64,000 nt of DNA. It comes from Acidobacteriota bacterium. Lineage in GTDB: Bacteria; Acidobacteriota; JAAYUB01. Positions within the stretch are counted from its first letter, which is position 1. Each line of letters opens with the position of its first letter. Shown in pieces: positions 27,586-51,926 of this stretch. The stretch spans positions 4,378,971 to 4,442,970 of the forward strand of contig JAXGLX010000002.1 of NCBI GenBank assembly GCA_040768985.1. The letters run 5' to 3'. The translations under genes were made by a program, and so were the position numbers. The notes under the pieces are model-generated. The model did no database searches. It had not been told where the DNA came from and saw only the letters and a program-made list of their open reading frames with translations.

Positions 27586-27765
27586 TGGATTCACACGCTC
27601 TTTAAATGAATCGGGCATGTTGTTTCGGTTTGAGGCGCAAAGACGCAACGACGGGCAGAGAATGGATCGACCGCCCGAATGTCCCGGCGCTGAAACACAA
27701 AAAATGTCTGCTTGGCGCCTTTGCGCCTTGGCGAGAAACAGAATTCTGAGTTTAGGAGATACGAT

Positions 27766-29270: not shown

Positions 29271-29442
29271 CATCATCAAAAACAGCCTCTTCTCCAAATA
29301 GCCAATAAAATATAAGCAATCACCAATAACCAATAGTTGGAAATGCCCGATGTCAAATGCCCGATGAAAAATGTCTAATGAATTCCTCTGTGCCCTCCGT
29401 GCCCTCTGTGGTGAAATCTCCCCATCCCAACCCTCGGATTCC

Positions 29443-29850: not shown

Positions 29851-31674
29851 ATGCCCTCCACTTTCCAAGACCTGAAAACCAAAATTGACGCCAAGACCGC
29901 AACGGTCGGCATCATCGGCCTCGGCTACGTGGGCCTCCCCCTGGCCATGGCCTTTGTCGAGAAGGGCGTCCGGGTGATCGGCTTCGACGTCGACGCCGAC
30001 AAGCCCGCGCGCCTGGCGCGCGGCGAAAGCTACATCCGCCACCTCGGCGCCGACCGTGTCGCCGCCATGGCCCGCTCGGGGCTCTTCGCCGCCACCACCG
30101 ACTTTGCGCGTCTCGCCGAGCCCGACGCCATCCTCATCTGCGTGCCCACGCCCCTCACCCCCCAGCGCGAGCCCGACATGACCTACGTCACCGCGTCCGC
30201 CCGGCAGGTGCGCGCGTCTTTGCGTCCCGGCCAGCTCGTGGTGCTCGAGAGCACCACCTACCCCGGCACCACCGACGAGCTGGTGCGGGGGATCCTGGAC
30301 GAAGCGAACCTCGAGTGCGGGCAGGACTACTTTCTGGCCTTTTCCCCCGAGCGCGAGGACCCGGGGCGCGAGGACTACACCACCACCACCACGCCGAAAG
30401 TCGTGGGGGGCGTCGACGCGGCGTCGGGGGATCTGGCCCAGGCGCTCTACGACCTCGTGATCGCCCGCACGGTGCGCGTCTCCTCGGCGCGCGCCGCCGA
30501 GTCGGCCAAGCTCACCGAGAACATCTTCCGGGCGGTGAACATCGCCCTGGTGAACGAGCTCAAGATGGTCTACGACCGGATGGGCATCGACGTCTGGGAG
30601 GTGCTCGACGCCGCCGAGACCAAGCCGTTCGGCTTCATGCGCTTCAACCCCGGCCCCGGCTGGGGCGGCCATTGTCTGCGAGGCGGCGAATGGGTTCGAG
30701 TCCGGGGCCTGGGATTGAACGGGCCGGTGCGGTTCGAGGATCTCTTCGACGCGTTGAAGAATGATCAGCCCGTCGCCGTCACCCCCAAGGGAATGTACCT
30801 GCATCCCCGAGGACTCGAGGCCCTGGCGCTCGATCCGCGGTCCGGCGATGTCGACTACCTGCCGGTGGAGGTCCTGTACCGCGGATTTTACGAAGGATCG
30901 GGCGTCTGCCTCACCACCGACGACAACCGCCGCCTGTTCCTGACCGACGGTCACCCCATGCTGGTCAAGAATGCAGCAGGCTTTGAGATCGTCTCAGCCC
31001 GCGATCTTCAAGCCGGTCAGCAACTGCCTGTCTTGAGCGAGGATGAAAACCCAGAATTGTCCTTGGCGTCTTTGCGCGCCATAGAAACCCTCGCCATGAA
31101 CGAACCGGTCTATTCTCTGGAAGTTGAGCGGGCGCATACGTTCACTACGACGGGGGGCATTGTCGTCCACAATTGTATCCCGCTGGACCCGTTCTATCTG
31201 TCCTGGAAGGCGCGGGAGCACGGCGAGTCGCCGAAATTCATCGAGCTGGCCGGCGACGTGAACCTGCGCATGCCCCACTACGTGGTGGGCAAGCTCCAGG
31301 CGGCGCTCAACGACCGCGGCCGCGCGGTGAAGGGGAGCCGGGTGCTGGTGCTCGGCATCGCCTACAAGCGCGACATCGACGACCCGCGCGAGAGCCCCGC
31401 CTTCGAGATCATCGACCTGCTGCTGCAACTCGGCGCCCACGTCTCGTATCATGACCCCCACATCCCCGCGGCGCCGCGGATGCGCACCTGGCCGAAGCTC
31501 CCGCCCATGCAGAGCACGCCGCTGACCCCCGCGACCCTGGCCGGGTGCGACGCCGTCCTCATCGTCACCGACCACCGCAACGTGGATTACTCCCTCGTGG
31601 CCAAACACGCCCCGCTCGTCATCGACACCCGCGGCCTCTACCGGGCGCCGCTCCCCAACGTCGTCAAGGCATGA
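29851..31674 (+). CDS. Nucleotide-sugar 6-dehydrogenase (UDP-N-acetyl-D-mannosamine/glucosamine dehydrogenase family) interrupted by a mini-intein
   Basis: N-terminal TVGIIGLGYVGLPLAMAF Rossmann fold. The active-site motif GPGWGGH-C-IPLDP is split by 167 aa. The C-terminal domain (VLVLGIAYKRDIDDPRESP) is intact. Confidence 0.9.
   Translation: MPSTFQDLKTKIDAKTATVGIIGLGYVGLPLAMAFVEKGVRVIGFDVDADKPARLARGESYIRHLGADRVAAMARSGLFAATTDFARLAEPDAILICVPTPLTPQREPDMTYVTASARQVRASLRPGQLVVLESTTYPGTTDELVRGILDEANLECGQDYFLAFSPEREDPGREDYTTTTTPKVVGGVDAASGDLAQALYDLVIARTVRVSSARAAESAKLTENIFRAVNIALVNELKMVYDRMGIDVWEVLDAAETKPFGFMRFNPGPGWGGHCLRGGEWVRVRGLGLNGPVRFEDLFDALKNDQPVAVTPKGMYLHPRGLEALALDPRSGDVDYLPVEVLYRGFYEGSGVCLTTDDNRRLFLTDGHPMLVKNAAGFEIVSARDLQAGQQLPVLSEDENPELSLASLRAIETLAMNEPVYSLEVERAHTFTTTGGIVVHNCIPLDPFYLSWKAREHGESPKFIELAGDVNLRMPHYVVGKLQAALNDRGRAVKGSRVLVLGIAYKRDIDDPRESPAFEIIDLLLQLGAHVSYHDPHIPAAPRMRTWPKLPPMQSTPLTPATLAGCDAVLIVTDHRNVDYSLVAKHAPLVIDTRGLYRAPLPNVVKA
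30673..31173 (+). mobile_element. Mini-intein (167 aa, no homing-endonuclease domain)
   Basis: Starts at Cys275 (CLRGGEW). Block B is LFLTDGHPML, block F is VYSLEVERAHTF, and block G is GGIVVHN ending at Asn441, followed by the +1 Cys442 (CIPLDP). Confidence 0.9.
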
Positions 31675-32079: not shown

Positions 32080-33279
32080 GTGGCGATGAGAATTGGAGAT
32101 TTACTGACTTCGATTGGCCCAGAGAAGTTTTTCGACCCTACAGATGAGCATCGGGCTTTGCGCAAGATGGTCCAACATCTAGCGGCATCAGAGTTGGAAC
32201 CTAATGCCGCCCGTGATGATGAATCCGAACAGTTTAACGAAAAATTGTTCCGCCGATTCGGCTCTGAGTTCAATCTGTTTGGACTGACTGTTCCCGCTGA
32301 TTTAGGAGGCGCCGGACTTGATCCCGTTGCGTCGGTACTCGTCACCGAGGAACTTTCAGTCGTCGACGCGGGTTTCGCCCTGTCATACATGGCCCACGAT
32401 GTCCTGTTTGTTCACAACTTTTTCCAGGGCGCCTCACCAGAGCAGATCAAACGGGTGTTGCCTCATGTCATCGATGGTTCCTGGATTTCCGGAATCGCCA
32501 TGACAGAGCCGGAAGCCGGAACCGATGTTCTGGGAATGCGCACGACGGCTCGACGAACTGCCAGCGGGTACATTCTAAACGGGGTGAAGCAGTTTATAAC
32601 CAATGCCGGACCGGGAGACATCTTCATCGTATATGCCAAAACCGGTTCAGATGACAAATCCATCAGCGCATTTCTTGTGGAGACAGATCGGAAAGGCGTA
32701 TCGATCGGAAAGCCGGAAAAGAAACTCGGCATGCGCACTTCGCCCACGGCGCAATTGGTATTCGATGAAGTTGTTGTTCCATCCGAGAACATAGTGGGAG
32801 CTGAAGGTCGCGGTTTAGTCCACATGATGCGCAATCTGGAAATCGAACGGGTGGTTCTGGCGGCCCAGAGCCTCGGAATCGCGCGGCGCTGCCTGGAGGT
32901 GGGCGCCACTTACGCCATTACACAGCGCAAACAGTTCGGTCAACCGCTCAGTCATTTTGGACAAATCCAGAAGATTCTTGCCGAAGGATTCGCAGACTTT
33001 CAGGCTGCGCGGGCTTTGGTTTATGCGGTGGCCCATCAGATCGATTTCAACGAGCGACGCAGCGCCGGTGCCGCTGCCGCTAAGCTGATGGCGGCGCAGA
33101 TGGCGGAGCGCGTGGGACGTGACATCATTCAGGTTCTGGGAGGATATGGCTACACACGGGAATATCCCGTGGAGCGCCTGTACCGTGACGCCATTCTCAT
33201 CAGCATCGGCGGCGGGACCAATGAAGCGATGGAGAAGAATCTGGTGAAGGATATGGCGCTCTGTTTTAAGGATCAGTGA
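32080..33279 (+). CDS. Acyl-CoA dehydrogenase (short/branched-chain type)
   Basis: GIAMTEPEAGTDV, QFITNAG and the C-terminal GGYGYTREYPVERLYRDA are typical ACAD motifs. Start is GTG 32080 or ATG 32086. Confidence 0.9.
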   Translation: MAMRIGDLLTSIGPEKFFDPTDEHRALRKMVQHLAASELEPNAARDDESEQFNEKLFRRFGSEFNLFGLTVPADLGGAGLDPVASVLVTEELSVVDAGFALSYMAHDVLFVHNFFQGASPEQIKRVLPHVIDGSWISGIAMTEPEAGTDVLGMRTTARRTASGYILNGVKQFITNAGPGDIFIVYAKTGSDDKSISAFLVETDRKGVSIGKPEKKLGMRTSPTAQLVFDEVVVPSENIVGAEGRGLVHMMRNLEIERVVLAAQSLGIARRCLEVGATYAITQRKQFGQPLSHFGQIQKILAEGFADFQAARALVYAVAHQIDFNERRSAGAAAAKLMAAQMAERVGRDIIQVLGGYGYTREYPVERLYRDAILISIGGGTNEAMEKNLVKDMALCFKDQ

Positions 33280-33309
33280 GCTTTTGATGAAGAAAATGGG
33301 GGTCCGACC

Positions 33310-34086
33310 ATGAACAATCCTAATGTCTTGATAGAAGTGAACGATCATGTGGCCGTGATGACCATCTCCCGGCCGGAGGCACTGAACGCGATAAATCAGG
33401 ATCTCTTGCTGCAAATGGAAGCAGCGATCGAGAATATCGAGGCAGACCGTCAGATTCGAGTGTTGGTGATCACCGGAGCCGGCCGGTCGTTTGTGGCGGG
33501 GGGTGATATCGCTGCGATGTCTAGAATGGATCCCTTTGAGGGACGAGCGTTCGTCCAGTTGGGACAACGGATTCTGGGCCGAATCGAAAACTCGCGGATG
33601 CCGGTTCTGGCAGCTGTGAACGGTTTTGCTCTGGGTGGCGGCTGCGAGTTGGCTCTGGCCTGCGACATCCGATATGCCTCGGACCGGGCGACGTTCGGCC
33701 AGCCCGAAGTCAACCTGGGGATCACACCAGGATTTGCCGGTTCACAACGCCTGGCCCGGATCTGCGGGCCGGGTGTGGCCAAAGATCTGGTGCTCACGGG
33801 CCGGGTTATTGACGCGCAACAGGCGCTGACAATCGGTTTGGTTGCGGCGGTATATCCGGCGGATGAATTATTGTCGAAAGTTATGGAGACAGCGGCTTTA
33901 GTTGCATCCCGATCTCCGGTGGCGGTTCAGATGGCCAAGTCGGCGATAAACAGAGGATATGATTCGACCTTTCAGACAGGAAGTCAGTACGAGGTCGAAG
34001 CATTCGCCCTCTGCATGTCGCACGCCGACTCGAAAGAGGGATTGAGCGCCTTTCTGGAGAAGCGGAAGCCGAAATGGAGTTCTTGA
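33310..34086 (+). CDS. Enoyl-CoA hydratase/isomerase (crotonase family)
   Basis: VLVITGAGRSFVAGGDI, AAVNGFALGGGCELALACD and FGQPEVNLGITPGFAGSQRL. Confidence 0.9.
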   Translation: MNNPNVLIEVNDHVAVMTISRPEALNAINQDLLLQMEAAIENIEADRQIRVLVITGAGRSFVAGGDIAAMSRMDPFEGRAFVQLGQRILGRIENSRMPVLAAVNGFALGGGCELALACDIRYASDRATFGQPEVNLGITPGFAGSQRLARICGPGVAKDLVLTGRVIDAQQALTIGLVAAVYPADELLSKVMETAALVASRSPVAVQMAKSAINRGYDSTFQTGSQYEVEAFALCMSHADSKEGLSAFLEKRKPKWSS

Positions 34087-34131
34087 ATTGCTTCCCATCG
34101 TTCAGTCTCGCACTCAAACAGGGAGGTTCCA

Positions 34132-34851
34132 ATGATCAGCTCTTATGCCGTGGTCAAAACAGACCGGGTGAGCCAGGATGCTGAAATACGTGAATTTGCC
34201 GTGATCGCTGAAGATGTGACCATCGGTCCTGGATGTATCATTCACCCGCATGTTGTAATCGAATCGGGTGTCGTGCTTGAGGAGGAGGTCGAGATTTTCT
34301 CCGGCGCCGTGATCGGTAAAGTGCCCAAGGGCGCGGGAGCGACGGCACGACAGCCTGAATTTAAACAAGGCGTTAAAATCGGCCGGTGCACTTCAATCGG
34401 ACCGCATGCGGTCATCTTTCAGGACGTCGTGATCGGTCAACACTGCCTGATCGGCGATGGCGCGTCGATTCGCGAGCAGTGCGCCATCGGCGACTATTCT
34501 CTGATCAGCCGCTATGTCACCATCAACTACAACACGACGGTCGGACATCACACCAAAATCATGGATCTGACCCACATCACCGGCAACATGAAAGTGGGGA
34601 ACAATGTGTTCGTCAGCATTCTAGTGTCGACCACCAACGACAATGCCATCGGCACCCAGGGCTACCGGGAAGAGGAGATCCGCGGCCCGTACATCCAAGA
34701 TGGTGCCATGATCGGTTGCGGGGCCAAACTGCTGCCCGGGGTGGTCGTCGGATCGGGATCCATCGTGGGTGCCGGTGCGGTCGTAACCAAAGATATCCCG
34801 AATGGAAAGCTGGCGATCGGCATGCCGGCTAGAGTGATACGTGATGTATGA
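34132..34851 (+). CDS. Left-handed beta-helix (hexapeptide repeat) acyltransferase, LpxD-like
   Basis: Repeated [LIV]-G-x4 hexapeptide pattern throughout: IGPGCIIHPHVVI, IGPHAVIFQDVVIGQHCLIGDGASI and VGSGSIVGAGAVV. Confidence 0.8.
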   Translation: MISSYAVVKTDRVSQDAEIREFAVIAEDVTIGPGCIIHPHVVIESGVVLEEEVEIFSGAVIGKVPKGAGATARQPEFKQGVKIGRCTSIGPHAVIFQDVVIGQHCLIGDGASIREQCAIGDYSLISRYVTINYNTTVGHHTKIMDLTHITGNMKVGNNVFVSILVSTTNDNAIGTQGYREEEIRGPYIQDGAMIGCGAKLLPGVVVGSGSIVGAGAVVTKDIPNGKLAIGMPARVIRDV

Positions 34852-34880
34852 GAAGATTTCACATACCGGGTGATTAAACG

Positions 34881-35318
34881 ATGTCGTTAAATTTATGCAA
34901 AATCATTGCGTTACCCAAGAACACCGATCCCCGCGGTAACCTAACCTTCATTGAAGGCGGGGTTCATGTGCCATTTCTTATTCAGCGGGTTTACTATTTG
35001 TACGATGTGCCTGGAGGAGCAGAGCGGGGGGGGCATGCCCACAAAGAACTCCACCAGTTAATAATCGCAATGTCCGGCAGTTTTGATGTGGTTCTGGACG
35101 ATGGATCGGAGAAGAAACGTTTCCACCTCAATCGTTCATATTTCGGTCTCTATGTTTGTCCGATGATATGGCGTGAGTTGGATAACTTTTCTTCTGGATC
35201 GGTATGCATGGTGCTGGCCTCGAATCGTTATAATGAAAACGATTATTACCGCGAATACGCAAATTTTCTAAATGTCATCCACGACAGGAGCAATTCAAGT
35301 AGCTGTCATGGATCATAG
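34881..35318 (+). CDS. Sugar 3,4-ketoisomerase (FdtA/WxcM-like cupin)
   Basis: [42 protein letters not shown] is the FdtA/QdtA signature. Confidence 0.85.
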
Positions 35319-35325
35319 GCAAGTT

Positions 35326-36432
35326 ATGAGAATTCCGTTCCTTGAGCTGCTGCCAGCATATCGTGAGTTGCAGTCGGAATTGGATGCGGCCTTCCATCGG
35401 GTCATGGCCTCGGGACAATACTTACTAGGGCCGGAGCTGGAGTCTTTTGAAGCGGAATTTGCCGCCTATTGCGGTACTCGGGAATGTGTGGGAGTGGGTA
35501 GTGGATTGGATGCCCTCCACCTTATTCTGCGTGCCTGCGACATCGGGCCGGGCGATGAGGTGGTCGTCCCTGCCCACACGTTCATTGCCACCTGGCTGGC
35601 GGTGACGTTCACCGGGGCACGGCCGGTACCGGTGGAGCCGGATCCGAGAACATTCAACCTTGACCCAGAGCGACTCGATGTGGCGATCACACCGAAGACC
35701 AAAGCCGTCATTCCAGTTCATTTGTATGGCCATCCGGCGGATATGGATGCCATCACAGCCACTGCCCGCCGTCACGGCATACTAGTAATTGAAGATGCCG
35801 CTCAAGCACACGGTGCCTCATACCGTGGCAGGCGATGCGGAGGACTCGGAGACGCTGCGGGCTTCAGTTTCTACCCCGCTAAAAACCTTGGGGCTTTCGC
35901 TGATGCAGGCGCCGTGACTACAAATTCTGGCAAGCTGGCAGACAAGATCCGAACGCTGCGGAATTATGGTTCGCGGAAAAAATATTACAATGAATGCATC
36001 GGGTACAACTCACGAATGGACGAGTTGCAGGCCGCCATGCTGCGGGTAAAACTTCGATATCTCAATGAATGGAATGAGCGGCATCGGACTATTGCCCGAG
36101 AATATAGCAAACTACTGGCAGAAACGCCCGACCTTCTACTCCCTCAGGTTGCCGAATGGGCTGAGCCGGTATGGCACCAGTTTGTGATCCGCCACCCCAA
36201 GCGAGATGAATTGAAAGATCAGCTTGCCGCACAAGGAATCGACACACTGATCCATTATCCTGTACCCCCGCACCTTTCGAAAGCTTATGCATTCATGGGA
36301 TTTGACAGCGGTGCGTTTCCTGTGACTGAGGATATCGTACGAACAGTTTTGAGCATGCCGATTGGCCCACATCTCACGACGGAACAATGTCACATTGTGA
36401 CCAATGCTGTCAGATCAAGAGGATTCATTTAA
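35326..36432 (+). CDS. DegT/DnrJ/EryC1/StrS-family sugar aminotransferase (FdtB/QdtB-like)
   Basis: [33 protein letters not shown], and [16 protein letters not shown] (PLP lysine region). An alternative ATG lies at 35308. Confidence 0.9.
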
Positions 36433-36465
36433 GCATTTTTTAGCGTTGAGAAAACACACAGCTTA

Positions 36466-38091
36466 GTGGATAAATCACTTAATACTGCAAAAGTTTTCAA
36501 AGAGTCCGAAGGACAGCGGGCAGCGGAAGAGAATCAAACAGAAAATGCTGCCGCAGCGCCCGATGCCTCCGATGTGCTAGACGATTCTTGCTCTGCTTCA
36601 GGTTACCGCGAGGTCCTTAAGGCGACGTCGATCACCGGCGTTTCATCGCTTGTCCAAATACTCTTGCGTATGGTGAAATCCAAGGTGATCGCCGTTGCCG
36701 TGGGGCCGACGGGCATAGGGATGTTCGGAGTATTGACCTCCGCAACCGGACTCATCAGCACCTTAGTCGGTTTGGGAATTAACAGCAGCGGTGTCCGGCA
36801 GATAGCGTCCGCCGACGGGGATGAGGACCATACGGCCCGGGTAGTCCGCACATTGCGGCGCACTTCGTCGGTGCTGGGACTTTTGGGAACAATTGTTGTG
36901 CTGATCTTTGCAAAGCCGATCGCCCGACTCACGACCGGCTCTGAGGAATATGCCGGCTATTTGATGCTGTTGGCACCTTTGATTTTTTTCACAACGGTCA
37001 ACGGGGGGCAGATAGCGCTGCTACGAGGGCTTCGACTCATCTCGACCTTGGCGCGACTCAGCATCATCGGGGCGGTTGTGGGGACTGGACTGGCTGTGCC
37101 GTTCGTGCTCATCTTGGGACTGGACGGCATCGCACCGGCCATGCTGGTGACTGCTGCTGTTACATTGGGGGCATCTTGGTTTTACGCAAGGCAGGTCAAG
37201 ATACCCGATGTTACTCTGACCCCCGGCCAGTTTAGAGACGAGGTGAGCAGACTGCTTGGGTTGGGAGTGGTCTTTCTCTTGACGGGTGTCCAAACAAATG
37301 CGGTTCAGTTCACAATCAGAACAGTACTGCTATATCTAACCGACCTCGTGACCGTCGGCCAGTTCCTTGCAGCGACCATGCTGTCTCATGTGTACGTCGG
37401 GTTTGTCCTTCAGGCGATGGGTATGGACTACCTTCCCCGACTAACCCGCAACCATCACGACGCGAGATCTTGCAACCGGCTGGTCAACGAGCAGACTGAG
37501 GTTGCGTTGCTCGTGGCCGGCCCAGGTATTGTGGCCTTGGCAGTTTTTGCACCCTTGCTGATCCCGGTTTTTTACAGTGCTCAATTTTCAGCCGCCATCG
37601 AGGTGTTTCGATGGCAGTGTCTGGGAGTCTTGATTAAAGTAGCGAGTTGGCCGATTGGATTCGTGCTCATCGCTAAGGGAATGCGCCGGACGTACCTTGT
37701 CACTGAGACGGTATCGAATGTCTTGTATCTGGCTATTTTCTTCATCTTTGCTAAAACATTTGGTTTGATCGGGGCGGCGCTTGCATATGCGGCTCTTTAC
37801 CTATTCTATCTAGCCATGGTGTTGATTCTGGTTCACAAGGTCACTGGATTCTGGTGGTCAGCCTGCGCACAGACTGTACTTGTCACTACTGTTGCATCAT
37901 ATGTCAGTACGCTGGCGATAAATGCGTGGGTACCCAGTCCGTGGGGCGCGATTGTCGGTTTCTGCTTAGTTATTGCCACTTGCCTATGGGCTTACCATCA
38001 GCTATGCCGACGTCTTGACTTGCCGCTTGCACGATTCGTCGTCCGGAAACTCAAGCAGATCACCCAGCGTACACCATTCCGGAGAGGGTGA
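36466..38091 (+). CDS. wzx: Polysaccharide flippase (Wzx-like, MOP superfamily)
   Basis: 541 aa, polytopic. N-terminal LLRMVKSKVIAVAVGPTGIGMFG is typical of O-antigen translocases. Confidence 0.8.
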   Translation: MDKSLNTAKVFKESEGQRAAEENQTENAAAAPDASDVLDDSCSASGYREVLKATSITGVSSLVQILLRMVKSKVIAVAVGPTGIGMFGVLTSATGLISTLVGLGINSSGVRQIASADGDEDHTARVVRTLRRTSSVLGLLGTIVVLIFAKPIARLTTGSEEYAGYLMLLAPLIFFTTVNGGQIALLRGLRLISTLARLSIIGAVVGTGLAVPFVLILGLDGIAPAMLVTAAVTLGASWFYARQVKIPDVTLTPGQFRDEVSRLLGLGVVFLLTGVQTNAVQFTIRTVLLYLTDLVTVGQFLAATMLSHVYVGFVLQAMGMDYLPRLTRNHHDARSCNRLVNEQTEVALLVAGPGIVALAVFAPLLIPVFYSAQFSAAIEVFRWQCLGVLIKVASWPIGFVLIAKGMRRTYLVTETVSNVLYLAIFFIFAKTFGLIGAALAYAALYLFYLAMVLILVHKVTGFWWSACAQTVLVTTVASYVSTLAINAWVPSPWGAIVGFCLVIATCLWAYHQLCRRLDLPLARFVVRKLKQITQRTPFRRG

Positions 38092-38095
38092 ACCG

Positions 38096-39115
38096 GTGGG
38101 AGCTCAGAAAAATGATCGCCCGCTGGTCACGTTTGCACTTTTCGCATACAACCAGGAGCAGTACATTCGGGAAGCAGTCCAGGGCGCATTTTCACAGACG
38201 TACTCGCCTCTGGAAATCATCCTTTCCGATGACCACTCCGCTGATCGAACTTTCGATATCATATTGGAGATGGCCGCCGACTACGTCGGTCCCCACCAGG
38301 TCCGCGTGCGGCGCAACGAAGAGAACTTGGGAATAGCCGGCCACGTGAACATGGTCATGGCTCAAGCGGCGGGTGAGTTGGTGGTGATGGCTGCGGGTGA
38401 CGACGTGTCGATTCCTTCAAGGACGGAGCGTTTGTTGTCCCTCTGGCTGAAGGAAGAGAGAAAACCGGACGGACTCTTCTCGGGTTATACGGCTGTATCG
38501 GCGGGTAGGTGCAAAACCATCAAACCCACTGGGAATTACTCAATCGATTATTGCTTCCATCACACGGCACTCAATCTACTAGGTGCCACCGCTGCCTGGA
38601 CCAGGCGGCTCTGGGAAACATGGGGGCCTCTTCCTGCGGATGGCTTGTGCGAAGATCGGAACCTTTCTTTCAGGGCTCTACTGGGGGGCGGTCTCGCGTA
38701 CACCCCCGAAGCAATGGTGCGGTACCGCTCATCGGTCAAACCGGCGCTTTCTGGAGATGCCCAATGGCTCACTAGAACACTCTGGAGATGGAAGCGCGAG
38801 CTTCACTTCTACGATGACTATGCCAAAGATCTTCATGCGGCAGGGAAAATGGAGCAACAGGCCGTTGATACGGATAAATTGCTCAACCTGCTCTCTCAAC
38901 GTAAAGCGCTCCTAGCCTGCGACTGCCAACTTCTTGCCGGTGGCAGGAAAGATATACTGCGTTATTGTCTCAGATTGATTTTCAATAAGGCCTGGCTCGA
39001 TGCCAGTGTAAGAAGCCGAGTGTATATTGTATTGACTCTCGTCCGTTGGTGCGTGCTGCGCACAAAGGATGCCCCCACTCTCGACACTCGGAATCATCGT
39101 GCACTGCGTAGATAA
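38096..39115 (+). CDS. Family 2 glycosyltransferase
   Basis: GTG start after GGAGAGGG. LVTFALFAYNQEQYIREAVQGAFSQTYSPLEIILSDDHSAD (GT-A with a DxD region), then GDDVS. Confidence 0.85.
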   Translation: MGAQKNDRPLVTFALFAYNQEQYIREAVQGAFSQTYSPLEIILSDDHSADRTFDIILEMAADYVGPHQVRVRRNEENLGIAGHVNMVMAQAAGELVVMAAGDDVSIPSRTERLLSLWLKEERKPDGLFSGYTAVSAGRCKTIKPTGNYSIDYCFHHTALNLLGATAAWTRRLWETWGPLPADGLCEDRNLSFRALLGGGLAYTPEAMVRYRSSVKPALSGDAQWLTRTLWRWKRELHFYDDYAKDLHAAGKMEQQAVDTDKLLNLLSQRKALLACDCQLLAGGRKDILRYCLRLIFNKAWLDASVRSRVYIVLTLVRWCVLRTKDAPTLDTRNHRALRR

Positions 39116-39307
39116 GTTACTAGTGTGGGAGCTACCAATGTTGCCCTCCTCATTTGACCATCAAGAGGCAGGTCATTTTTTAGGATGGAGCAAAGTTGCG
39201 TGTTCACACGGAACTGACATTTTGCTATCAGATATACAACGCGTTACTCGGGCGAACAAGGGCCTCCGAATATTTGAGTGTACAAATTCGACATCAGCGG
39301 CATGTGA

Positions 39308-40729
39308 ATGAACCGAACGTTCGTATTTTGGTTCTATTGGGGGGCGGAGATCAGGGTTTTTGTCTTCAGTGGGCTTATCGATTACCTTTTAGATCATGGA
39401 GAAGTTGTTGTCTGCGCGAGGTTCCTCAATCAAGACCTGATGTCATCGGCCGATCCTAGAGTCAGATGGATCCAATCCACACTAACTAAGGGGTCCCCCT
39501 GGCAATCACGTTTGCACTCTTTTGCTAACCGTGTCCATTTATTGTGGTTACGCAATCGTTTCGAGGGTATGGCTGTTCTTGATCGAGCAGCAGCGGCGGG
39601 TGATACAGAACCACAGAATACGCTACGTGAGGTTGGCGCAAAAGCTTGTGCACGCCGGCCACTGGTTAATATTGTTAATAAACTTGCATCGAGAGCGCTC
39701 GACACAACCGTGGAAGATCTCAACTGGTTGTCAACTATGGACCTATCGAAAAGAACGATGCTCTTGGTATCCAGCGATTATCTGAGCGTTGCAGGTGTAC
39801 GTACCATATGGGCAGCTAAAAAGCGAAAGCAGACAACAGTTTTCTATCCTTCAAACTGGAGAGATGTTTACAAGGGAGCCCGCTTATCCCCTCCCTTCAA
39901 CGACTGGATCATGTGGAACGCAAAAATGGTGGATGCAGCACGAAGGAATAATCCATGGTTAGGCGACGCTAGATTCAAAGAAGCAGGTTCAACACAGTTC
40001 GATTCGCATTTTCGCTCTGATTGGCTTGTTCCGCGTGACAATTTCTGCAAGATACTGGGCACCGACCCCCAAAGACCATTAATATGCTACTCGGCCGTGA
40101 GTGATTCAGCGTTTAAGGGGGAAGCTGAAATTGTGGAGCAAATTATTGATGCTCTTCAAAAATCTGAAATTGGGCGCTCGGTTCAAGTTGTGGTTAGACT
40201 CAATCCTGCGGGTAGCGACCCCGGTTATCGTGACCTTTGTCTAAAATACCCACAGACATGTTTTATACAATCACCTGAATGGTGGATAGAACGTCCACCA
40301 GATGGCTCACCGATTTGGCGATCGAACACTCCTGCCGATGCTCGGATGATGGCTAATCTTATCGAACATTGCTGTGCCAATGTTGGGCTTCCATCAACTA
40401 TGATGTTGGACTTTGCGGTGAAAGGTCGGCCTTCGGTCTGCATCGGATTTGACCCGAGTGAATGCAAAGGGGGAAATACTCGTGTGAAAAATTTCCTTGA
40501 TCAGGAGTTCATCCGACCTGCGTTGGAACAGAATGTGTGGCCTGTAGCCAATTCGGCGACCGATGTGGCTGAACTACTTGTCAAGTGTATAAAAGGGACT
40601 ATTACGGAAAATAAAGCTGCCTACGATTTCGTGACAGCGACAGTGGGCTCATGTGATGGAAAAGTTCACCAGCGGTTGGCACAGGATATTATCTCAATCT
40701 GCGATCGAGTGCGCCAAACAAGGCGGTGA
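39308..40729 (+). CDS. Hypothetical protein (473 aa), possibly a GT-B-like glycosyl- or phospho-transferase
   Basis: Long ORF with island-like codon usage inside the glycosyltransferase block. I recognise no motif with confidence. Confidence 0.5.
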   Translation: MNRTFVFWFYWGAEIRVFVFSGLIDYLLDHGEVVVCARFLNQDLMSSADPRVRWIQSTLTKGSPWQSRLHSFANRVHLLWLRNRFEGMAVLDRAAAAGDTEPQNTLREVGAKACARRPLVNIVNKLASRALDTTVEDLNWLSTMDLSKRTMLLVSSDYLSVAGVRTIWAAKKRKQTTVFYPSNWRDVYKGARLSPPFNDWIMWNAKMVDAARRNNPWLGDARFKEAGSTQFDSHFRSDWLVPRDNFCKILGTDPQRPLICYSAVSDSAFKGEAEIVEQIIDALQKSEIGRSVQVVVRLNPAGSDPGYRDLCLKYPQTCFIQSPEWWIERPPDGSPIWRSNTPADARMMANLIEHCCANVGLPSTMMLDFAVKGRPSVCIGFDPSECKGGNTRVKNFLDQEFIRPALEQNVWPVANSATDVAELLVKCIKGTITENKAAYDFVTATVGSCDGKVHQRLAQDIISICDRVRQTRR

Positions 40730-40783
40730 GAAACTTTGAATGTGGTGCGATTGATAACCAACTTGAATTGGGAGGACGGATAA

Positions 40784-41962
40784 GTGCGCATACAGTTTGT
40801 CTCTCATGAGGCTGTGGGTATTGAAAAGGCGATGGACCACGGTGGCGTGGGCATCTCACAGCGTGTCGTTGCCGAGGGTCTGGCAAGGAGAGGACATCAT
40901 GTGGAACTCCTGCTGCCGTCCGACAAGGAGTGGAACAATGAATATGCTGGTGTCAAACTCCGTGGATGGAAATCTGACAGGCGACGATTTGTGGGGATAT
41001 TCCGGAACATGAAACGCCAGAAGCAGTTGGCGGCCGATTTTGCCAAGGGCGACAGTGACGCATTCACTATTATTCCTGATGTCGGTTGTGTAAGTTGGCC
41101 ATATCCCCTAGCTTCGATAAAGGTCATTAAGTTCACATGCACACATCTATTACAGAAGCACGAAGCTCAACATGATCGACCCAATTATCTAAGAGCAATC
41201 GCGGAAAAACTCATGGTACCCCGCGCCAACGCCTTTTTCTCTATCAGCGCGCGAACTGCAGATGTCTCTGCCCATCTTTTTAAAATTGCGAGAGATCAGA
41301 TTGTAGTGATTCCGAATGCCGTTGACACAGAAATGTTCCGGCCGCCGGAGAATGAATCCCGCGATCCCAATCTGCTCCTTTATACGGGGACAGTGTGTGA
41401 GAAGAAGGGGGCTTGGGAGACAGTAGCGGCGCTCCGGATTCTTGAAGAGCGCTATCCTAATCTCAAACTTCTGATGATCGGACGGAATGGAGTGGATTAC
41501 AACAATAGAGGCGACTTCATCGGACGAATAAAGACGGCTTTTCCTGATACATGTCACTCCCGTGTCGAGTTCAGAGGTCATGTTAAGAACGATGAACTTC
41601 CATCTATCTATCAGAAGGCTGCGGTAGTTGTGCTGCCATCGTATTACGAGTCTTTCGGGCGCACGACTATTGAAGCGATGGCGTGTGGGGCAGCGGTGGT
41701 CCGAAGTGATTCACCACCAGCATCAGAGATTATATCAGATGGTATCGATGGTCTTCTCTGCCGGACAAAAGATGCTGAAGATCTTGCTAAGAAGATCGAT
41801 ACCCTCCTTTGTTCGCCAGAACTCAGACAGAGTTTAGGTGCCAAAGCACGAAAGACAGCAGTGACCCGCTTCTCTGTGGGTGTTGTCGTGGAAATGACCG
41901 AAGCATTTCTGAAAAACCTGCTTGACGAAGAGAGAAGGTGTAACGACTTTCACTTAAGTTGA
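40784..41962 (+). CDS. Family 4 (GT-B) glycosyltransferase
   Basis: VVLPSYYESFGRTTIEAMACGAAVVRSDSPPASEIISDGIDGLL (EX7E motif). GTG start after GGAGGA. Confidence 0.85.
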   Translation: MRIQFVSHEAVGIEKAMDHGGVGISQRVVAEGLARRGHHVELLLPSDKEWNNEYAGVKLRGWKSDRRRFVGIFRNMKRQKQLAADFAKGDSDAFTIIPDVGCVSWPYPLASIKVIKFTCTHLLQKHEAQHDRPNYLRAIAEKLMVPRANAFFSISARTADVSAHLFKIARDQIVVIPNAVDTEMFRPPENESRDPNLLLYTGTVCEKKGAWETVAALRILEERYPNLKLLMIGRNGVDYNNRGDFIGRIKTAFPDTCHSRVEFRGHVKNDELPSIYQKAAVVVLPSYYESFGRTTIEAMACGAAVVRSDSPPASEIISDGIDGLLCRTKDAEDLAKKIDTLLCSPELRQSLGAKARKTAVTRFSVGVVVEMTEAFLKNLLDEERRCNDFHLS

Positions 41963-41974
41963 TTAGAGGATAAG

Positions 41975-42976
41975 TTGCCCAACCAAAATACTATAGTTTC
42001 GGGATCTCGGGATTTCGAGGCAAATCTAGTACTTGCTGTTAATAAAGTTGTTCACGATTTAGAGGGTTTTTCATACCACATCAAACACGAAGCAATGTTC
42101 GCTTTGGAAAGTCCGCGATGGCAGGCTGTCACAAAGCGTTTCATTGTTGATTGTCTCCAGCAAGTAGTAGTATTGGACATTGGCTCAGGAACCGGATTTG
42201 TGCCTCAGATCATTGCACCACAACTGAAAATCGGTGATCTGTGCATCTGTTCAGATGTCTCCGCCACAATGCTCCAAGTATGTAGAGATAGGTTATCTGA
42301 AACGGAAGTAAATTGCGGACTAAAATTCCTTCTTCTCGACGGGGAACGGATCAGCCAAAATTCAGAATATTTCACCCATGTTACAATGAACTCGGTTCTT
42401 CATCACCTAGCAAATATCGATTCCTTACTCATCGAAGTAGACCGGGTACTTTGTCCTGGCGGCAGGGTTTTCATTGGACATGAACCCAATGCTGCTTTCT
42501 ACAGAAGCCGTTTTCTTCGTTGGGTAACACGTATTGTCCGTGTATTTTTAGATCCTCTCCACGCCCCGAAGAATATCTGCTCCTTTTATAAATTTCGGAC
42601 AAATAACTCGATGAAAACAAACCGAATTGAGGCAGAGAGTGCATTCGAGAGCGCATTTGTGGAAGAAGTCAACCAAAGTCTCCTGAGAGAGGGTATCATT
42701 CAGAAACCACTATCGAAAAAAGAGATTGGCAACATAGTTGACTTGCGTTCGGCAGGAGGTTCAGGCGTCACTCAGGGAATAGATATCGAGAAAGAAATAA
42801 TGAGTAAACTGAACGAATACCAGGTCGAGTTCTTTCAGACTTACAATCATCTTGGCAAAGTAAGCAACAAAAATTTTGTAACAAGAGCAATTGATCACAC
42901 ACTTAGATTGCTATTTCCACACACAGGCGGAACCTTCTTCGTGGTTCTGCGAAAATCAATGGCAAAGCGGGGATGA
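41975..42976 (+). CDS. Class I SAM-dependent methyltransferase
   Basis: VLDIGSGTGF motif I and LCPGGRVFIGHEPN. TTG start after AGAGGA. Confidence 0.8.
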   Translation: MPNQNTIVSGSRDFEANLVLAVNKVVHDLEGFSYHIKHEAMFALESPRWQAVTKRFIVDCLQQVVVLDIGSGTGFVPQIIAPQLKIGDLCICSDVSATMLQVCRDRLSETEVNCGLKFLLLDGERISQNSEYFTHVTMNSVLHHLANIDSLLIEVDRVLCPGGRVFIGHEPNAAFYRSRFLRWVTRIVRVFLDPLHAPKNICSFYKFRTNNSMKTNRIEAESAFESAFVEEVNQSLLREGIIQKPLSKKEIGNIVDLRSAGGSGVTQGIDIEKEIMSKLNEYQVEFFQTYNHLGKVSNKNFVTRAIDHTLRLLFPHTGGTFFVVLRKSMAKRG

Positions 42977-43218
42977 ATTTAATTTGAGATTCGCTACGTG
43001 TTAACGACAATATCGAGATCAGCTTTTCGATCGGAATGAAAAGATATGAAGAGAGATTCGAGTTTGAACAAATTGAGATTTTTCAATGCGCCAAATGATG
43101 TCTCTTCTTTGAAGTAGCGAGACAAGATGAACAAGATGGAGTGATTTGAATAATCGACTTCATTCTGTAATTAATGTGAACCTGATCGGATAATTTTCGC
43201 TGAGATAATCGTCTCCTT

Positions 43219-44403
43219 TTGAATAGTAGCAAAGCATCTAACGAGGACAAGACACAAGTAGCCGATCGGCCGCGTGTGTTATTCATTGTAGGCACAATGT
43301 CTCTTGGGGGTGCCGAAAATCTGGTTTTCGAGTGGTGTCGCGCTTTATACAACGAGAAGGTTTCCTGCGCGATTGTCTGTCTGATTCGACGGGAAGGTCA
43401 CTACCTCTCGTTAGTTGAGGAAATGGGTATTCCGGTATTTGAGATTTCACAGGCAAAATCATCCAAGATAAGTTTCACCTGGAAGCTTGGTGCCCTGATT
43501 GCATCTTATGGTGCATCGATCGTCCATAGCCAGTGTAGCTGGTCATTAACCCAACAAGCTTTAGCGTCTAAACTTGGTCGAGCCAAGGCGTTTCTGCTTA
43601 CAATGCACAGTGCTTTTGCACCGGGAAGCAGAACAGTTCGTTTGAAAAGAAAAATTGCAAATTTAATAGCGGCTCCCTTCATCAACAAGATCATCGGTGT
43701 ATCCGATAATGTGAGTATACATGCCGCAGAGTGGACCGGAAAAGACTCTCGAAACATTGTGACTATCCGAAATGGGATAGATCTTACAGCTTTTGACACA
43801 TGTCGCAGCCAACGACATTCGATGAGAGCGGAATTTGGGGTTGCCGATGACGTCCCCCTGTTGATCAATGTGGCAAATCTGACGGCACATAAAGACCATG
43901 CAACGCTTTTTACGGCTTTCAAAATCTTGTTGCAACGGTGGCCTTTGGCGCACCTACTTATTGTAGGAGATGGTCAGCTCCGCGAAACTTTAGCGCAATT
44001 GGCCTTGGACCTCAGAATTTCTAAGTCTTTAACATTTGTTGGTCGCAGAACAGATGTGCCTGCCATCCTGGGTGCGGGTGATGTCTTTGTTCTTTCTTCG
44101 ATCCGGGAAGGCTTTGGCCTTGCGCTGGTAGAAGCTGGTGCAGCCTCAATTCCGGTGGTTGCAACTCGCGTCGGTGGTATTCCAGAAGTGGTGCGTCATG
44201 GAGAAACAGGACTTCTTGTCCCGCCTGGAGATCCGCCCAAACTTGCAGAATCAATCGAGATTATTCTTAGTAAAGAGGACTTTGGTCGGGAAATGGGTTC
44301 CGCCGGGCGTAGGTTTGTTACCGACCGCTTTGGAATCGATCGTTGTTTTTCAGAGTATCTCGACCTCTACAAAGGGGTGCTTGGTGCAGAATGGGAAGCA
44401 TAG
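43219..44403 (+). CDS. Family 4 (GT-B) glycosyltransferase
   Basis: MSLGGAENLV N-terminal region and VFVLSSIREGFGLALVEAGAASIPVVATRVGGIPEVV (EX7E). The start codon is uncertain: TTG 43219 or an internal GTG near 43273. Confidence 0.85.
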   Translation: MNSSKASNEDKTQVADRPRVLFIVGTMSLGGAENLVFEWCRALYNEKVSCAIVCLIRREGHYLSLVEEMGIPVFEISQAKSSKISFTWKLGALIASYGASIVHSQCSWSLTQQALASKLGRAKAFLLTMHSAFAPGSRTVRLKRKIANLIAAPFINKIIGVSDNVSIHAAEWTGKDSRNIVTIRNGIDLTAFDTCRSQRHSMRAEFGVADDVPLLINVANLTAHKDHATLFTAFKILLQRWPLAHLLIVGDGQLRETLAQLALDLRISKSLTFVGRRTDVPAILGAGDVFVLSSIREGFGLALVEAGAASIPVVATRVGGIPEVVRHGETGLLVPPGDPPKLAESIEIILSKEDFGREMGSAGRRFVTDRFGIDRCFSEYLDLYKGVLGAEWEA

Positions 44404-44500
44404 GATTATAAAAGAAAAGTACTTTTCTGAAGGTGACACCCGGATTCACAGAGACCATTTTTTCGAGCCACTACAACAAGTCAAGATGTGATTTTGCATA

Positions 44501-45865
44501 ATGACTAATTACTATCCAACGTTGACCCAATCATATAAATCGGTAGGAGGCTACACTCAGAATGTGGGTGTTGCGGTACCAACAGCATCTGTGTCTAAAT
44601 GGGAATTGGTTCTCCTCGGGGCTTGGATTGCATCATTTACGGTGGGGCTTGATGCTTTTTTTGATTTAAAACTGTTTGACATCATAGGTGCCATTACAAT
44701 TTGGCGCTACAGATCAATTGTTTTATGCGGATTCAAGGAAAAGTCAAAAACAGGTGTTACGCTCCGCTGGGTATCGATCATGTTCTCAATTGGAGTCTTA
44801 ATAGCAATACTCAGGGTTGGCGAACCTATATTTGTTGCAATCGTCTTGTTACGGTTAGCAAGACTATTTAGTTATTTTTCAGCTTTACTGATCTTTCGTG
44901 CACTTCCTTTTAATGCAAGACAATTGCGGATTGTCATTTGGATATTTTGCGGCTCATGTTTGGCCCAAGCAATTCTAATTCTCCTGCAGGAACAAGGACT
45001 GGTGCCGCTTTTCTGGTCAATTGCAGAAATGGCAATCTATGGCCGGATCTATTCAACTGGGACATTGGGCCTCAACCACCTTAACCAAGTCTTGTTCATG
45101 GTCGTCGGCCTCTGTGCGACGCTTTCATTGGTTTTCACTGGACGAGCTAGAAGATCTCTTCGTCTTGTCATCGTCGGCGTTGGATGCCCCATGATGTTAT
45201 TTGCTATGCTAGTTGGCGAAGCGAGAAGCGGTCTAGTAGCACTTGCCGTCATGAGTTCGATTATAGCGATTCGAATGAAAAAACTCATATTGATTGTGTT
45301 AATCATACCGCTATCTATTGTAATCGATGCGTCACTGGGCTTAGACATACAAGCGCGTATCTCCAATATGTGGGAACAAAAATTCACGCAGAGAATGGTA
45401 CCCGGTCTCCCAGGAGCCGAAACAATCGAGGCATTAGACGCTCCGCGCCCTCTGATTTGGAGAAAGTCTGTGAATAGGCTTGTGGAAGATCCCATAATTT
45501 TGCTTGTTGGTGCGGGTTTTCAAAATTATAAGGGACTTGGGGCTGGAGGTGTAGCTGCAGGCCACAATCTCTACCTTCATGTGTTAGTTGAGCTTGGAAT
45601 AATGGGCTTAGCATCATTCTTGGCCTTTCTAATGGTATTGTACCGATCACTTAAAAGTGGAAAACATGACTCAGCCGATTCATCTAGGATCAAAATGTTT
45701 GGGCTTACTCTGTTCATCACATTGCTCGTTCTTGGTCTGTTTAATGAAAGTTTGTACCCTCAACGCGCCATCATGGGGTTTATGGGATTTGCTTTAGCGT
45801 ACATTGCAGTTGCGGGACACCGAGGGTGGACTATCCAGCCTTATCAGAGGGTTGGGGTTCATTAG
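44501..45865 (+). CDS. O-antigen polymerase/ligase-family membrane protein (Wzy-like)
   Basis: 454 aa, polytopic. GAGFQNYKGLGAGGVAAGHNLYLHVLVELGIMGL resembles the Wzy_C/O-antigen ligase signature. Confidence 0.7.
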   Translation: MTNYYPTLTQSYKSVGGYTQNVGVAVPTASVSKWELVLLGAWIASFTVGLDAFFDLKLFDIIGAITIWRYRSIVLCGFKEKSKTGVTLRWVSIMFSIGVLIAILRVGEPIFVAIVLLRLARLFSYFSALLIFRALPFNARQLRIVIWIFCGSCLAQAILILLQEQGLVPLFWSIAEMAIYGRIYSTGTLGLNHLNQVLFMVVGLCATLSLVFTGRARRSLRLVIVGVGCPMMLFAMLVGEARSGLVALAVMSSIIAIRMKKLILIVLIIPLSIVIDASLGLDIQARISNMWEQKFTQRMVPGLPGAETIEALDAPRPLIWRKSVNRLVEDPIILLVGAGFQNYKGLGAGGVAAGHNLYLHVLVELGIMGLASFLAFLMVLYRSLKSGKHDSADSSRIKMFGLTLFITLLVLGLFNESLYPQRAIMGFMGFALAYIAVAGHRGWTIQPYQRVGVH

Positions 45866-45915
45866 CTGCCTATCACAGTTGACTGCTGGTTTATTCATCC
45901 AATAATCAGAACAGC

Positions 45916-47061
45916 ATGAAGCTCCTTATCGTCACTGAATGTGGGCACTACCGACGTGCAGAGCGAGTGCTGGCGCCCAGGCACTTTGTGAGAGAGATCT
46001 CTCTATGGGCCAGGATGTTCGATTCGGTGGTTCTGATTACGCGGTTTCCGTCTTGGCAGGAGCCGGCGGATTTGGTGGAATATGGTTGTGAGAATATCAC
46101 TTTCCGTGTCGGCAATGGTGCCTTCGGAACGAACTTGATTGAAGTGTTACGGTCACTCGCCCGTTCAACGGTGGCAGTTTGCAAGATTGTAAGCGAGTAC
46201 ACTCGCGCTGATGCCGTGCACATTCGATGCCCCTCTCGGCATGGGTTGCTGGCGCTCTTGGTGTGGCTTCTGGCACCCAAGCCTTGCTACGTGAAATGGG
46301 CTGGTAATTGGGATTTTCAGGGAGGCGTGCCATGGAGTCTCCGGTTGCAGCGGTGGCTGGTGAGGCGGATGAAAGGCGCTGTAGTAGCCACAGTTTATGG
46401 GAGATTGGACGACGATCCGCCGCACATCCACGAGACGCTCACAACAAGCCTCAACGAGGAAGAAATTAAAAGGTGCTTAGAGCTTGACCGGAAGCATTCT
46501 CCGAACGAACTCCGGCTCCTTTGGGTGGGCAGATCCTCGGCCAACAAGAACACACGTGTCCTGCTGGATGTTGTAGAGCGAGTATTTCGCGCATTTCCAC
46601 TAGTCACTTTGCATCTTGTGGGGGACGGTCCTGATTTGATGGATTTGAAGGCGGAAGCTGAAGCCAGGGGAATTGGTCAAAGGATGGTGTTTCACGGTTC
46701 TCAACCCTGGCAACGATTGTGTGAACTGTACGCGAGTGCCAGGCTCCTGCTGTTGCCCTCGTTGTCGGAGGGATTCCCCAAAGTCGTGATAGAGGCCGCA
46801 CTTTTTGGCACTCCATCTATTGTGTTCGCCTGTGGTGCGCTTCCGGACATCGTCAAGAACAAGGGGGTTGCAGTTGAACCAATAGGGGATACCCAGGAAT
46901 ACGTGCAAGCAGTTTTGGATCTTTTGGCAGACGAAGCACGATGGGAGGATTTATCTGTCAATGCTCGCAACTGGGCCTCACAGATCTCTATTGAGTCTGT
47001 GGTGGATGGGTATCGGAGGATGATTGAAACTTCTTGGAATGTAAAGCTCCTTCAAGGCTAG
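45916..47061 (+). CDS. Family 4 (GT-B) glycosyltransferase
   Basis: LLLLPSLSEGFPKVVIEAALFGTPSIVFACGALPDIV (EX7E region). Confidence 0.8.
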   Translation: MKLLIVTECGHYRRAERVLAPRHFVREISLWARMFDSVVLITRFPSWQEPADLVEYGCENITFRVGNGAFGTNLIEVLRSLARSTVAVCKIVSEYTRADAVHIRCPSRHGLLALLVWLLAPKPCYVKWAGNWDFQGGVPWSLRLQRWLVRRMKGAVVATVYGRLDDDPPHIHETLTTSLNEEEIKRCLELDRKHSPNELRLLWVGRSSANKNTRVLLDVVERVFRAFPLVTLHLVGDGPDLMDLKAEAEARGIGQRMVFHGSQPWQRLCELYASARLLLLPSLSEGFPKVVIEAALFGTPSIVFACGALPDIVKNKGVAVEPIGDTQEYVQAVLDLLADEARWEDLSVNARNWASQISIESVVDGYRRMIETSWNVKLLQG

Positions 47062-47062
47062 G

Positions 47063-50769: not shown

Positions 50770-50778
50770 AATAATGGT

Positions 50779-51882: not shown

Positions 51883-51926
51883 GCGAGTAGCATGCGATCG
51901 GCAAATCAGTCATCAGAATTCCAGCG

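Follow-up and report, generated by a model that had tools for sequence, protein, structure and literature searches.

UDP-glucose dehydrogenase is listed as an intein host in InBase (Perler 2002, as cited in PMC2874743), and the tables of Novikova et al. 2016 give 10 inteins for UDP-GlcDH (COG1004), in Euryarchaeota only (PMC4760082). Here we analysed a nucleotide-sugar 6-dehydrogenase gene on a stretch of 64,000 nucleotides from an Acidobacteriota bacterium (assembly GCA_040768985.1, contig JAXGLX010000002.1), referred to below as the window. The gene is interrupted by a 167-amino-acid (aa) insert, which is very probably a genuine mini-intein, able to splice and descended from a LAGLIDADG homing intein. 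An earlier annotation made from the letters alone (the sequence-only reading) had proposed such an element, and had stated that inteins of UDP-glucose-dehydrogenase-family genes are catalogued mainly in archaea, which agrees with the Novikova tables. The archaeal host enzymes belong to the same superfamily as the window host. One named archaeal member, the AglM/Ugd UDP-glucose 6-dehydrogenase of Methanonatronarchaeum thermophilum (WP_086637739.1, P0180), carries its intein at the same insertion point (GFGGS/C...IIIHN/CFPKD, where slashes between residues mark the splice junctions here and below) and is colinear with the window protein across both junctions. In contrast to the archaeal cases, the window host is bacterial (Acidobacteriota/Thermoanaerobaculia-like), its intein is a 167-aa mini form, and the gene is a WecC/Cap5O/WbpA-like paralogue (GGHCIPxDP) rather than a Ugd/AglM enzyme (GGSCFPKD).

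Two full-length relatives, P0004 (918 aa, contig L004) and P0005 (925 aa, contig L005, GCA_964412195.1, from an uncultured Acidobacteriota metagenome-assembled genome, MAG), have an insertion site identical to that of the window gene and exteins that are 95 % and 85 % identical to its own. About 311 additional residues, including both LAGLIDADG motifs (..GYFLAEGC.. and ..LLAGLLRGDGDV..), are retained in them, and the last ~40 residues of their inteins are about 55 % identical to those of the window. No earlier report of inteins in bacterial UDP-sugar dehydrogenases, in Thermoanaerobaculia or in a WecC/WbpA-like paralogue was found in the literature searched, which left most subscription journals and InBase outside its coverage.

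Among inteins with solved structures, the archaeal mini-inteins Pho RadA (2lqm, 4e2t), Pho/Pab CDC21-1 (6rpq, 6rpp), Mvu TFIIB (5o9i), Pho PolII (5bkh), the hyperthermophile intein 7oec and Tvo VMA (4o1s) have the Hint fold and the size of the window insert, together with its layout of Cys1, TxxH and HN. The solved archaeal mini-inteins were the best profile matches (E = 1e-8 to 3e-12), at 16-22 % sequence identity to the window insert and with other hosts and insertion sites. Conditional splicing is documented for the mycobacterial DnaB intein (PMC6195587, PMC7360933) and for SufB (PMC8891592), and Pho RadA is discussed as a conditionally splicing intein (PMC4760082). The window intein resembles these in having Cys nucleophiles, which oxidation or metals could in principle trap, and in its location within an active-site motif.

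The insert in the dehydrogenase gene

The sequence-only reading had placed the gene at 29851..31674 as an open reading frame (ORF) of 607 aa, about 170 aa too long for a nucleotide-sugar dehydrogenase. The coordinates and quoted motifs were all exact on re-check, and the excess length is accounted for by the 167-aa insert, with 440 aa left after splicing in silico. Across the junctions, the window protein reads ...NPGPGWGGH/CLRGGEWV...GGIVVHN/CIPLDPFYLSW. In the unspliced precursor, the PF00984 central domain was cut at residue 276 (match 214-276), and TIGR03026 matched in two stretches with 397 bits. Deleting 30673..31173 in silico gave a single PF00984 match at residues 214-304 (1-92 of 94 model positions) and one TIGR03026 stretch at residues 18-428 (2-413 of 413), with 413 bits against a cut-off of 189.8. 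As had been predicted, the spliced product is thus a gap-free 440-aa enzyme with a contiguous GGHCIPLDP and a full-length TIGR03026 match, and its alignment has no gap through GGHC(I/L)P relative to PDB relatives, namely the P. horikoshii UDP-ManNAcA dehydrogenase 4r16 (E = 2.9e-61), 3g79 and S. aureus Cap5O 3ojl.

This enzyme lies nearer to the UDP-N-acetyl-hexosamine dehydrogenases (WecC, Cap5O and WbpA type) than to UDP-glucose dehydrogenase, and UDP-N-acetyl-hexosamine is our best guess for its substrate class. The WecC, TviB and AglM equivalog cut-offs were all missed (NF008286, 252 vs 459; NF040825, 244 vs 750; NF011729, 206 vs 592; NF041297, 190 vs 670). Alignment of the GGxCxP motif confirmed that the insertion lies directly before the catalytic Cys of the family, which is used as the +1 residue. 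From established knowledge of the UDP-glucose/GDP-mannose dehydrogenase family, we take Cys442 to be the catalytic nucleophile. With 167 residues separating GGH from this Cys, it is reasonable to infer that the precursor would be inactive.

A family profile (A2) built from 11 mini-inteins of the window family was used for a PDB search and for an AlphaFold2 (AF2) model. Every one of its 16 PDB matches was an intein, the best being Pho CDC21-1 (2.8e-12) and Pho RadA (3.7e-11). The AF2 model had a compact Hint (horseshoe beta) fold, with a mean predicted local distance difference test score (pLDDT) of 96.3 and a predicted template modelling score (pTM) of 0.88. In a Foldseek search with this model, template modelling (TM) scores were 0.83-0.89 to Mvu TFIIB 5o9i, Pho RadA 2lqm/4e2t, 7oec and Tvo VMA 4o1s; Hedgehog Hint domains and bacterial intein-like (BIL) domains also matched, with lower scores than the mini-inteins. 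A profile that matches only inteins in the PDB and a model that superposes on mini-inteins both uphold the Hint/intein identity proposed from the letters.

The splicing blocks that had been named for the insert (Cys1, B, F, G, Asn441 and the +1 Cys) were likewise supported by alignment to solved inteins. Block B aligned as LTDGHPML with VTPSHPVL and VTPTHPFF, block F as VYSLEV..HTF with VYDLVIPETHNF, and block G as IVVHN with LVLHN. T91 and H94 of block B are invariant in the A2 alignment. The intein C-terminal model TIGR01443 exceeded its cut-off on the window insert (Table 1), and precomputed annotation assigns PF14890 to P0001-P0005. A six-frame hmmsearch of the window with the family profile found a Hint domain in this ORF only. 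The insert has the properties of a class 1 intein: Cys1, TxxH, His-Asn followed by Cys+1, the Hint fold, the existence of empty alleles and restoration of the host upon removal. A class 3 (WCT) intein was considered and rejected, as Cys1 is present and position 4 of block F (F:4) is Ser, not Cys.

Table 1. Coordinates of the interrupted dehydrogenase gene, the parts of its intein and the adjoining gene set. GC3, GC content at third codon positions; omega, ratio of non-synonymous to synonymous substitution rates.
Feature	Coordinates	Strand	Basis
Precursor gene, nucleotide-sugar 6-dehydrogenase interrupted by mini-intein	29851..31674	+	607 aa plus stop; Pfam UDPG_MGDP_dh_N, central and C domains
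N-extein, residues 1-274, ending ...NPGPGWGGH	29851..30672	+	sequence, alignment; GC3 0.93
Class-1-type mini-intein, 167 aa, Cys275 to Asn441	30673..31173	+	profiles, AF2, Foldseek, GC3, omega
Cys1 (Cys275), N-terminal splicing nucleophile, block A	30673..30675	+	sequence; Cys in 64/64 family members
Block B TxxH, Thr365-Asp-Gly-His368	30943..30954	+	aligned to TxxH of Pho RadA and CDC21-1 inteins
Junction from loss of ~311-aa DNA-recognition and LAGLIDADG region, ..LSE/DENP..	31036..31053	+	P0004/P0005 alignments
C-terminal splicing segment, residues 398-441, mosaic, lowest GC of the gene	31042..31173	+	~60 % nucleotide identity to the L004 intein, sliding identity, composition
Block F (VYSLEVERAHTF), F:4 = Ser422	31108..31143	+	alignment to solved inteins
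Block G (GIVVHN), penultimate His440 and terminal Asn441	31156..31173	+	TIGR01443 27.6 bits vs cut-off 15.6
Cys+1 (Cys442), C-extein splicing nucleophile, Cys of GGxCxP(x)D motif	31174..31176	+	gap-free alignment to GGHC(L/I)P
C-extein, residues 442-607 plus stop, starting CIPLDPFYLSW	31174..31674	+	sequence, alignment; GC3 0.94
Low-GC polysaccharide biosynthesis genes	32080..53138	+	window annotation; gene order repeated after the L001 intein-free allele

Empty, mini and full-length alleles at one codon

A search with the precursor returned intein-free, mini and full-length homologues. Intein-free proteins of 440-441 aa (P0007, 96 % identical; P0008, 93-94 %) close exactly as GGH/CIPLDP in the alignment, and two 607-aa proteins carry the same mini-intein (P0002, 97 %; P0003, 91 %). 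P0004 and P0005 (918-925 aa) add a LAGLIDADG domain (PF14528) within a 478-aa intein at the same codon, and their ~311 extra residues lie between ..PV(L/C)SE and the C-terminal splicing segment. The window insert of 167 aa has no LAGLIDADG match and shows a ~311-aa gap relative to P0004 and P0005, in keeping with the earlier description of a mini-intein with no homing endonuclease. Among the best 120 precursor matches, 28 contained inteins, 28/28 at this single site; 11 were mini forms (167-222 aa) and 17 were full-length (477-484 aa). Mini forms have more than one origin, P0010 being a deletion of a P0012-type intein and P0018 a deletion of a P0020-type one. In the extein tree, occupied and empty alleles were sisters three times (P0004 full with P0007 empty, P0003 mini with P0008 empty, and P0005 full with P0023 empty), and empty, mini and full alleles were interleaved at 92–96 % extein identity. 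At the population level, such a pattern is the hallmark of a homing element that is mobile.

At the DNA level, the spliced window junction matched the empty site of the L001 allele (GGCCCCGGCTGGGGCGGCCAC/TGCATCCCGCTGGACCCGTTC around the insertion point) at 40/42 nucleotides, and both differences were synonymous. The gene order downstream of L001 is that of the window, which identifies it as the same locus without the intein. The two differences are third positions, CAT vs CAC in the His274 codon and TGT vs TGC in the Cys+1 codon. Both lie directly at the insertion point (within 30670-30675 and 31171-31176), and these positions are variable among occupied alleles too.

These alleles bear on the alternative that the insert is no intein, to which we give almost no chance. 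It would then be a domain integral to the proteins of one lineage, a BIL domain or the product of a chimeric assembly. The sequence-only reading had itself named two such doubts, that close homologues might all carry the segment and that the assembly might be chimeric at 30673 or 31173. P0007 and P0008 are close homologues without the segment, and the same 167-aa element with identical junctions occurs in two independent metagenome assemblies, L008 and L009, which excludes a chimera at either position. An integral domain and an assembly chimera are ruled out because of this empty/occupied polymorphism and the junctions shared by independent assemblies. In 64 proteins, belonging to two subfamilies, the insertion is also exact and in frame at a single conserved codon. 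A BIL domain was rejected as well, given the conserved insertion site, the invariant +1 Cys and two properties of inteins, the existence of empty alleles and an ending in HN and Cys+1.

The alignments show that the mini-intein descends from a LAGLIDADG homing intein still circulating at the same codon in close Thermoanaerobaculia (Acidobacteriota). The window element is unable to home by itself because the ~311-aa endonuclease and DNA-recognition region has been lost. The deletion junction lies in a linker of the Hint fold (fuller reading ..LSE/DENPEL..). Relative to the full-length intein of L004, the N-terminal part of the window intein (residues 275-404/406) shares 96 % of its amino acids and 94.7 % of its nucleotides, and its synonymous divergence (dS) of 0.13 is below the 0.31 of the exteins. 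The last 35 intein codons are 62 % identical to those of L004 with saturated dS, and on these grounds a simple in-frame deletion of an L004-type intein was rejected. Sliding identity over 15 codons fell from 0.98-1.00 to 0.58-0.71 in the C-terminal segment and recovered at once in the C-extein, and the break coincides with the endonuclease-deletion junction. Because the N-terminal part is nearly identical to the L004 intein while the C-terminal segment is saturated with differences, the window mini-intein is a mosaic recombinant. Its N-terminal half stems from a recent exchange with an L004-type homing intein, and the ancestry of its C-terminal half is a different one, from within the same subclade but not sampled. 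Among the 28 aligned inteins, none was a closer donor for the C-terminal segment. The same mosaic is kept in three assemblies, with an omega of ~0.13-0.17 in the C-terminal segment.

Composition also distinguishes the intein from its host. A lower GC in the 3' half of the intein than in the host gene had been noted from the letters; this was true, but understated the difference. The whole window intein is low (GC 0.61, GC3 0.72) relative to both exteins (GC 0.69, GC3 0.93-0.94), and its last 35 codons are lowest (GC 0.55, GC3 0.66). In 5/5 alleles with DNA examined, GC3 was 0.62-0.74 in the intein vs 0.91-0.99 in the exteins. The window intein has a foreign codon composition and intact LAGLIDADG relatives, both indicative of a selfish, mobile element.

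A scan of species-representative genomes placed the family in MAGs of Thermoanaerobaculia (Thermoanaerobaculales, Sulfomarinibacteraceae) and of other Acidobacteriota. A HMMER search of 1.84 billion cluster representatives gave 1308 matches at E <= 1e-3, including 163 at E <= 1e-10, and the best 150 contained 36 dehydrogenases with an intein at this site (34 plus P0001 and P0019). Several metagenomic homologues are labelled 'UDP-N-acetyl-D-mannosaminuronate dehydrogenase/intein/homing endonuclease' by the Joint Genome Institute (JGI) pipeline. The members form two subfamilies, GGH/C..HN/C(I or L)PxDP and GG(S or F)/C..(HN or HQ)/CFPKD. Pooling of all retrieved members gave at least 64 dehydrogenase inteins, all at one site, with Cys1 and Cys+1 each in 64/64, HN in 62/64 and TxxH in 60/64. 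Both LAGLIDADG motifs are kept in about 29-30 of the 36 full-length members.

A related intein was also found on an Elusimicrobia contig (L018), at the equivalent point of a Ugd-type paralogue (GFGGF/C...VVHN/CFPKD). This contig encodes two adjacent dehydrogenases at 695-1993 (-) and 2089-4521 (+), one intein-free and WecC/WbpA-like and the other intein-bearing and Ugd-type. The middle region of the L018 intein (~370 aa) has no obvious LAGLIDADG motif by eye.

Selection and the proposed splicing pathway

In order to gauge constraint on the intein, we compared the three mini-intein alleles with DNA from the window, L008 and L009. Between the window and L009, the omega of the intein was 0.12 (33 synonymous and 14 non-synonymous differences) and that of the exteins 0.21; between the window and L008, the intein value was 0.03. 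Extein values were 0.12-0.21, and the constraint on the intein is equally strong. Such purifying selection on the intein fits an element that has to go on splicing for the sake of a required host enzyme.

Following the canonical class 1 pathway, the 607-aa precursor would be translated whole and the Hint domain would fold. Cys275 would attack the carbonyl of His274 in an N-S acyl shift assisted by the TxxH block, and the N-extein would then be transferred to Cys442 by transesterification. Cyclisation of Asn441 would release the intein, after which an S-N shift would give a normal peptide bond. The predicted products are a 440-aa dehydrogenase with an intact GGHCIPLDP active site and a free intein of ~18 kDa. 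The element persists since imprecise loss or failed splicing would destroy the host enzyme.

Several observations weigh against a splicing-competent intein. Some curated intein hidden Markov models (HMMs) scored just under their cut-offs on the single window sequence, PF14890 with 33.7 bits (E = 3.9e-8) against a gathering score of 35.8 and TIGR01445 with 19.5 bits against a cut-off of 24.5. Position F:4 is Ser422 (31114-31116) in the window and Asp in the best solved matches aligned to it, CDC21-1 and RadA. The mosaic C-terminal segment might in principle mismatch the N-terminal part and slow splicing. The intein call as a whole is computational, with splicing deduced from sequence and model. 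The HMM scores, the Ser for Asp and the mosaic segment could all suit a degenerate, non-splicing remnant with its endonuclease lost and a foreign C-terminal segment, in which case the gene would be a pseudogene in effect or would give cleavage products only.

We regard such a remnant as very unlikely. Cys1, TxxH, HN and Cys+1 are all intact, exteins and intein are under purifying selection (omega 0.03-0.21 across the three mini-intein alleles), and the AF2 model is a compact, confident Hint fold. For the identity of the insert, the A2 family profile is decisive over the borderline single-sequence HMM scores. Asp at F:4 is common in class 1 inteins, though not universal. Ser occupies this position in at least 59/64 family members, full-length ones included, and is probably tolerated, being family-wide in a family under selection. 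We therefore treat it as a family peculiarity that is no bar to class 1 membership, and retain the assignment of the insert as a splicing mini-intein.

The polysaccharide locus and a possible regulatory role

The dehydrogenase adjoins a low-GC island at ~32-57 kb (GC 0.44-0.55 vs ~0.68), and the earlier statement that the gene lies next to a low-GC island with a polysaccharide locus was correct. Genes of the island encode an acyl-CoA dehydrogenase, an enoyl-CoA hydratase, a hexapeptide acyltransferase, an FdtA isomerase, a DegT aminotransferase, a Wzx-type flippase, eight glycosyltransferases, a methyltransferase and a UDP-GlcNAc 2-epimerase. In L004, L005, L008 and L009, another polysaccharide gene set follows the same dehydrogenase (NTP_transf_5, Glycos_transf_4, NTP_transferase, epimerase, DegT, PglD and flippase). 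Since the downstream sets differ, the dehydrogenase is a conserved flank of a swappable locus. Such swapping resembles that of O-antigen/capsule loci next to gnd/ugd in enterobacteria. The state of the intein is independent of the cluster type: one type occurs both in the window (mini) and in L001 (empty), and the second type is found with L008 and L009 (mini) as well as L004 and L005 (full).

Upstream of the dehydrogenase is tsf (27712-28668), followed by a repeat-rich spacer. The spacer contains a tandem repeat at 28913-29272 with a period of 7 (CCCAGTT, ~50 copies), nested in a period of 35 (~10 copies) with 78-83 % matches and a strong negative GC skew. It yields spurious repeat ORFs on both strands (GTWDLGAG.., PSTQ..). 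Just upstream of tsf, a 102-bp tandem repeat (2.7 copies, 91 % matches) spans 27215-27488. A small ORF at 26752-27189 (145 aa), also upstream of tsf, is probably the PDDEXK_3 (PF13366) gene found at the syntenic position in L008, by visual comparison.

The sequence-only reading had viewed splicing as a possible gate on uronic-acid supply for the adjacent polysaccharide locus. This part of the reading was not supported, as the 96 %-identical intein-free allele L001 precedes the same gene set. Conditional splicing, in which the intein would keep the dehydrogenase inactive until conditions allow, for example through a redox switch formed by a Cys275-Cys442 disulfide, and would so gate UDP-uronic-acid supply for the neighbouring locus, is in our estimate improbable. 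In its favour, the two nucleophiles are both Cys, with the catalytic residue of the enzyme itself at +1, and the intein is under purifying selection, although this is expected of any intein in a needed gene. Inteins are rare at catalytic residues, and some have been argued to be regulatory (Novikova et al., PMC4760082); control by redox state, zinc or temperature is documented for other inteins (PMC6195587, PMC7360933). Against conditional splicing stand, besides the L001 allele, the three sister pairs of empty and occupied alleles, the lack of coupling between intein state and polysaccharide cluster type, and the foreign GC3 and intact LAGLIDADG relatives, which point to a mobile selfish element. 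No sensor feature was found in the intein, whose sole internal Cys (residue 348) is not conserved. In contrast to the DnaB, SufB and RadA inteins, no sign of conditionality was found for the window intein, and its population data point to a dispensable selfish element, with no new regulatory mechanism on present evidence.

A more far-reaching set of interpretations is similarly doubtful. A redox/thiol switch through the Cys275-Cys442 disulfide might couple the supply of uronic-acid sugars to redox state, with Ser at F:4 perhaps marking a tuned class 1 variant, or, as a more modest novelty, an allele catalogued only in Euryarchaeota might be actively cycling in Thermoanaerobaculia across two paralogues. 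If the latter is true, homing would have to occur between domains and between paralogues, at an active-site codon that hardly varies.

The finding adds a bacterial, mini, mosaic form to a mobile intein family that was already known, and an archaeal enzyme has its intein at the same site. For annotation, we propose that the gene be described as a nucleotide-sugar dehydrogenase that contains an intein and matures to 440 aa, and not as an oversized enzyme. The small (159–190 aa) Cys1/Cys+1 mini-inteins of the family are candidates for protein engineering. The general interest of the case is modest, with some value to intein specialists, and it is uncommon in that the insertion point is the catalytic residue. 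With this case, the range of an intein allele that has been listed for Euryarchaeota only (PMC4760082) comes to include Acidobacteriota and a second dehydrogenase paralogue. The family also provides a natural series at one site, comprising empty, full-length homing and several independently derived mini forms, which is useful for studying the homing cycle, endonuclease loss and the modular recombination of splicing halves.

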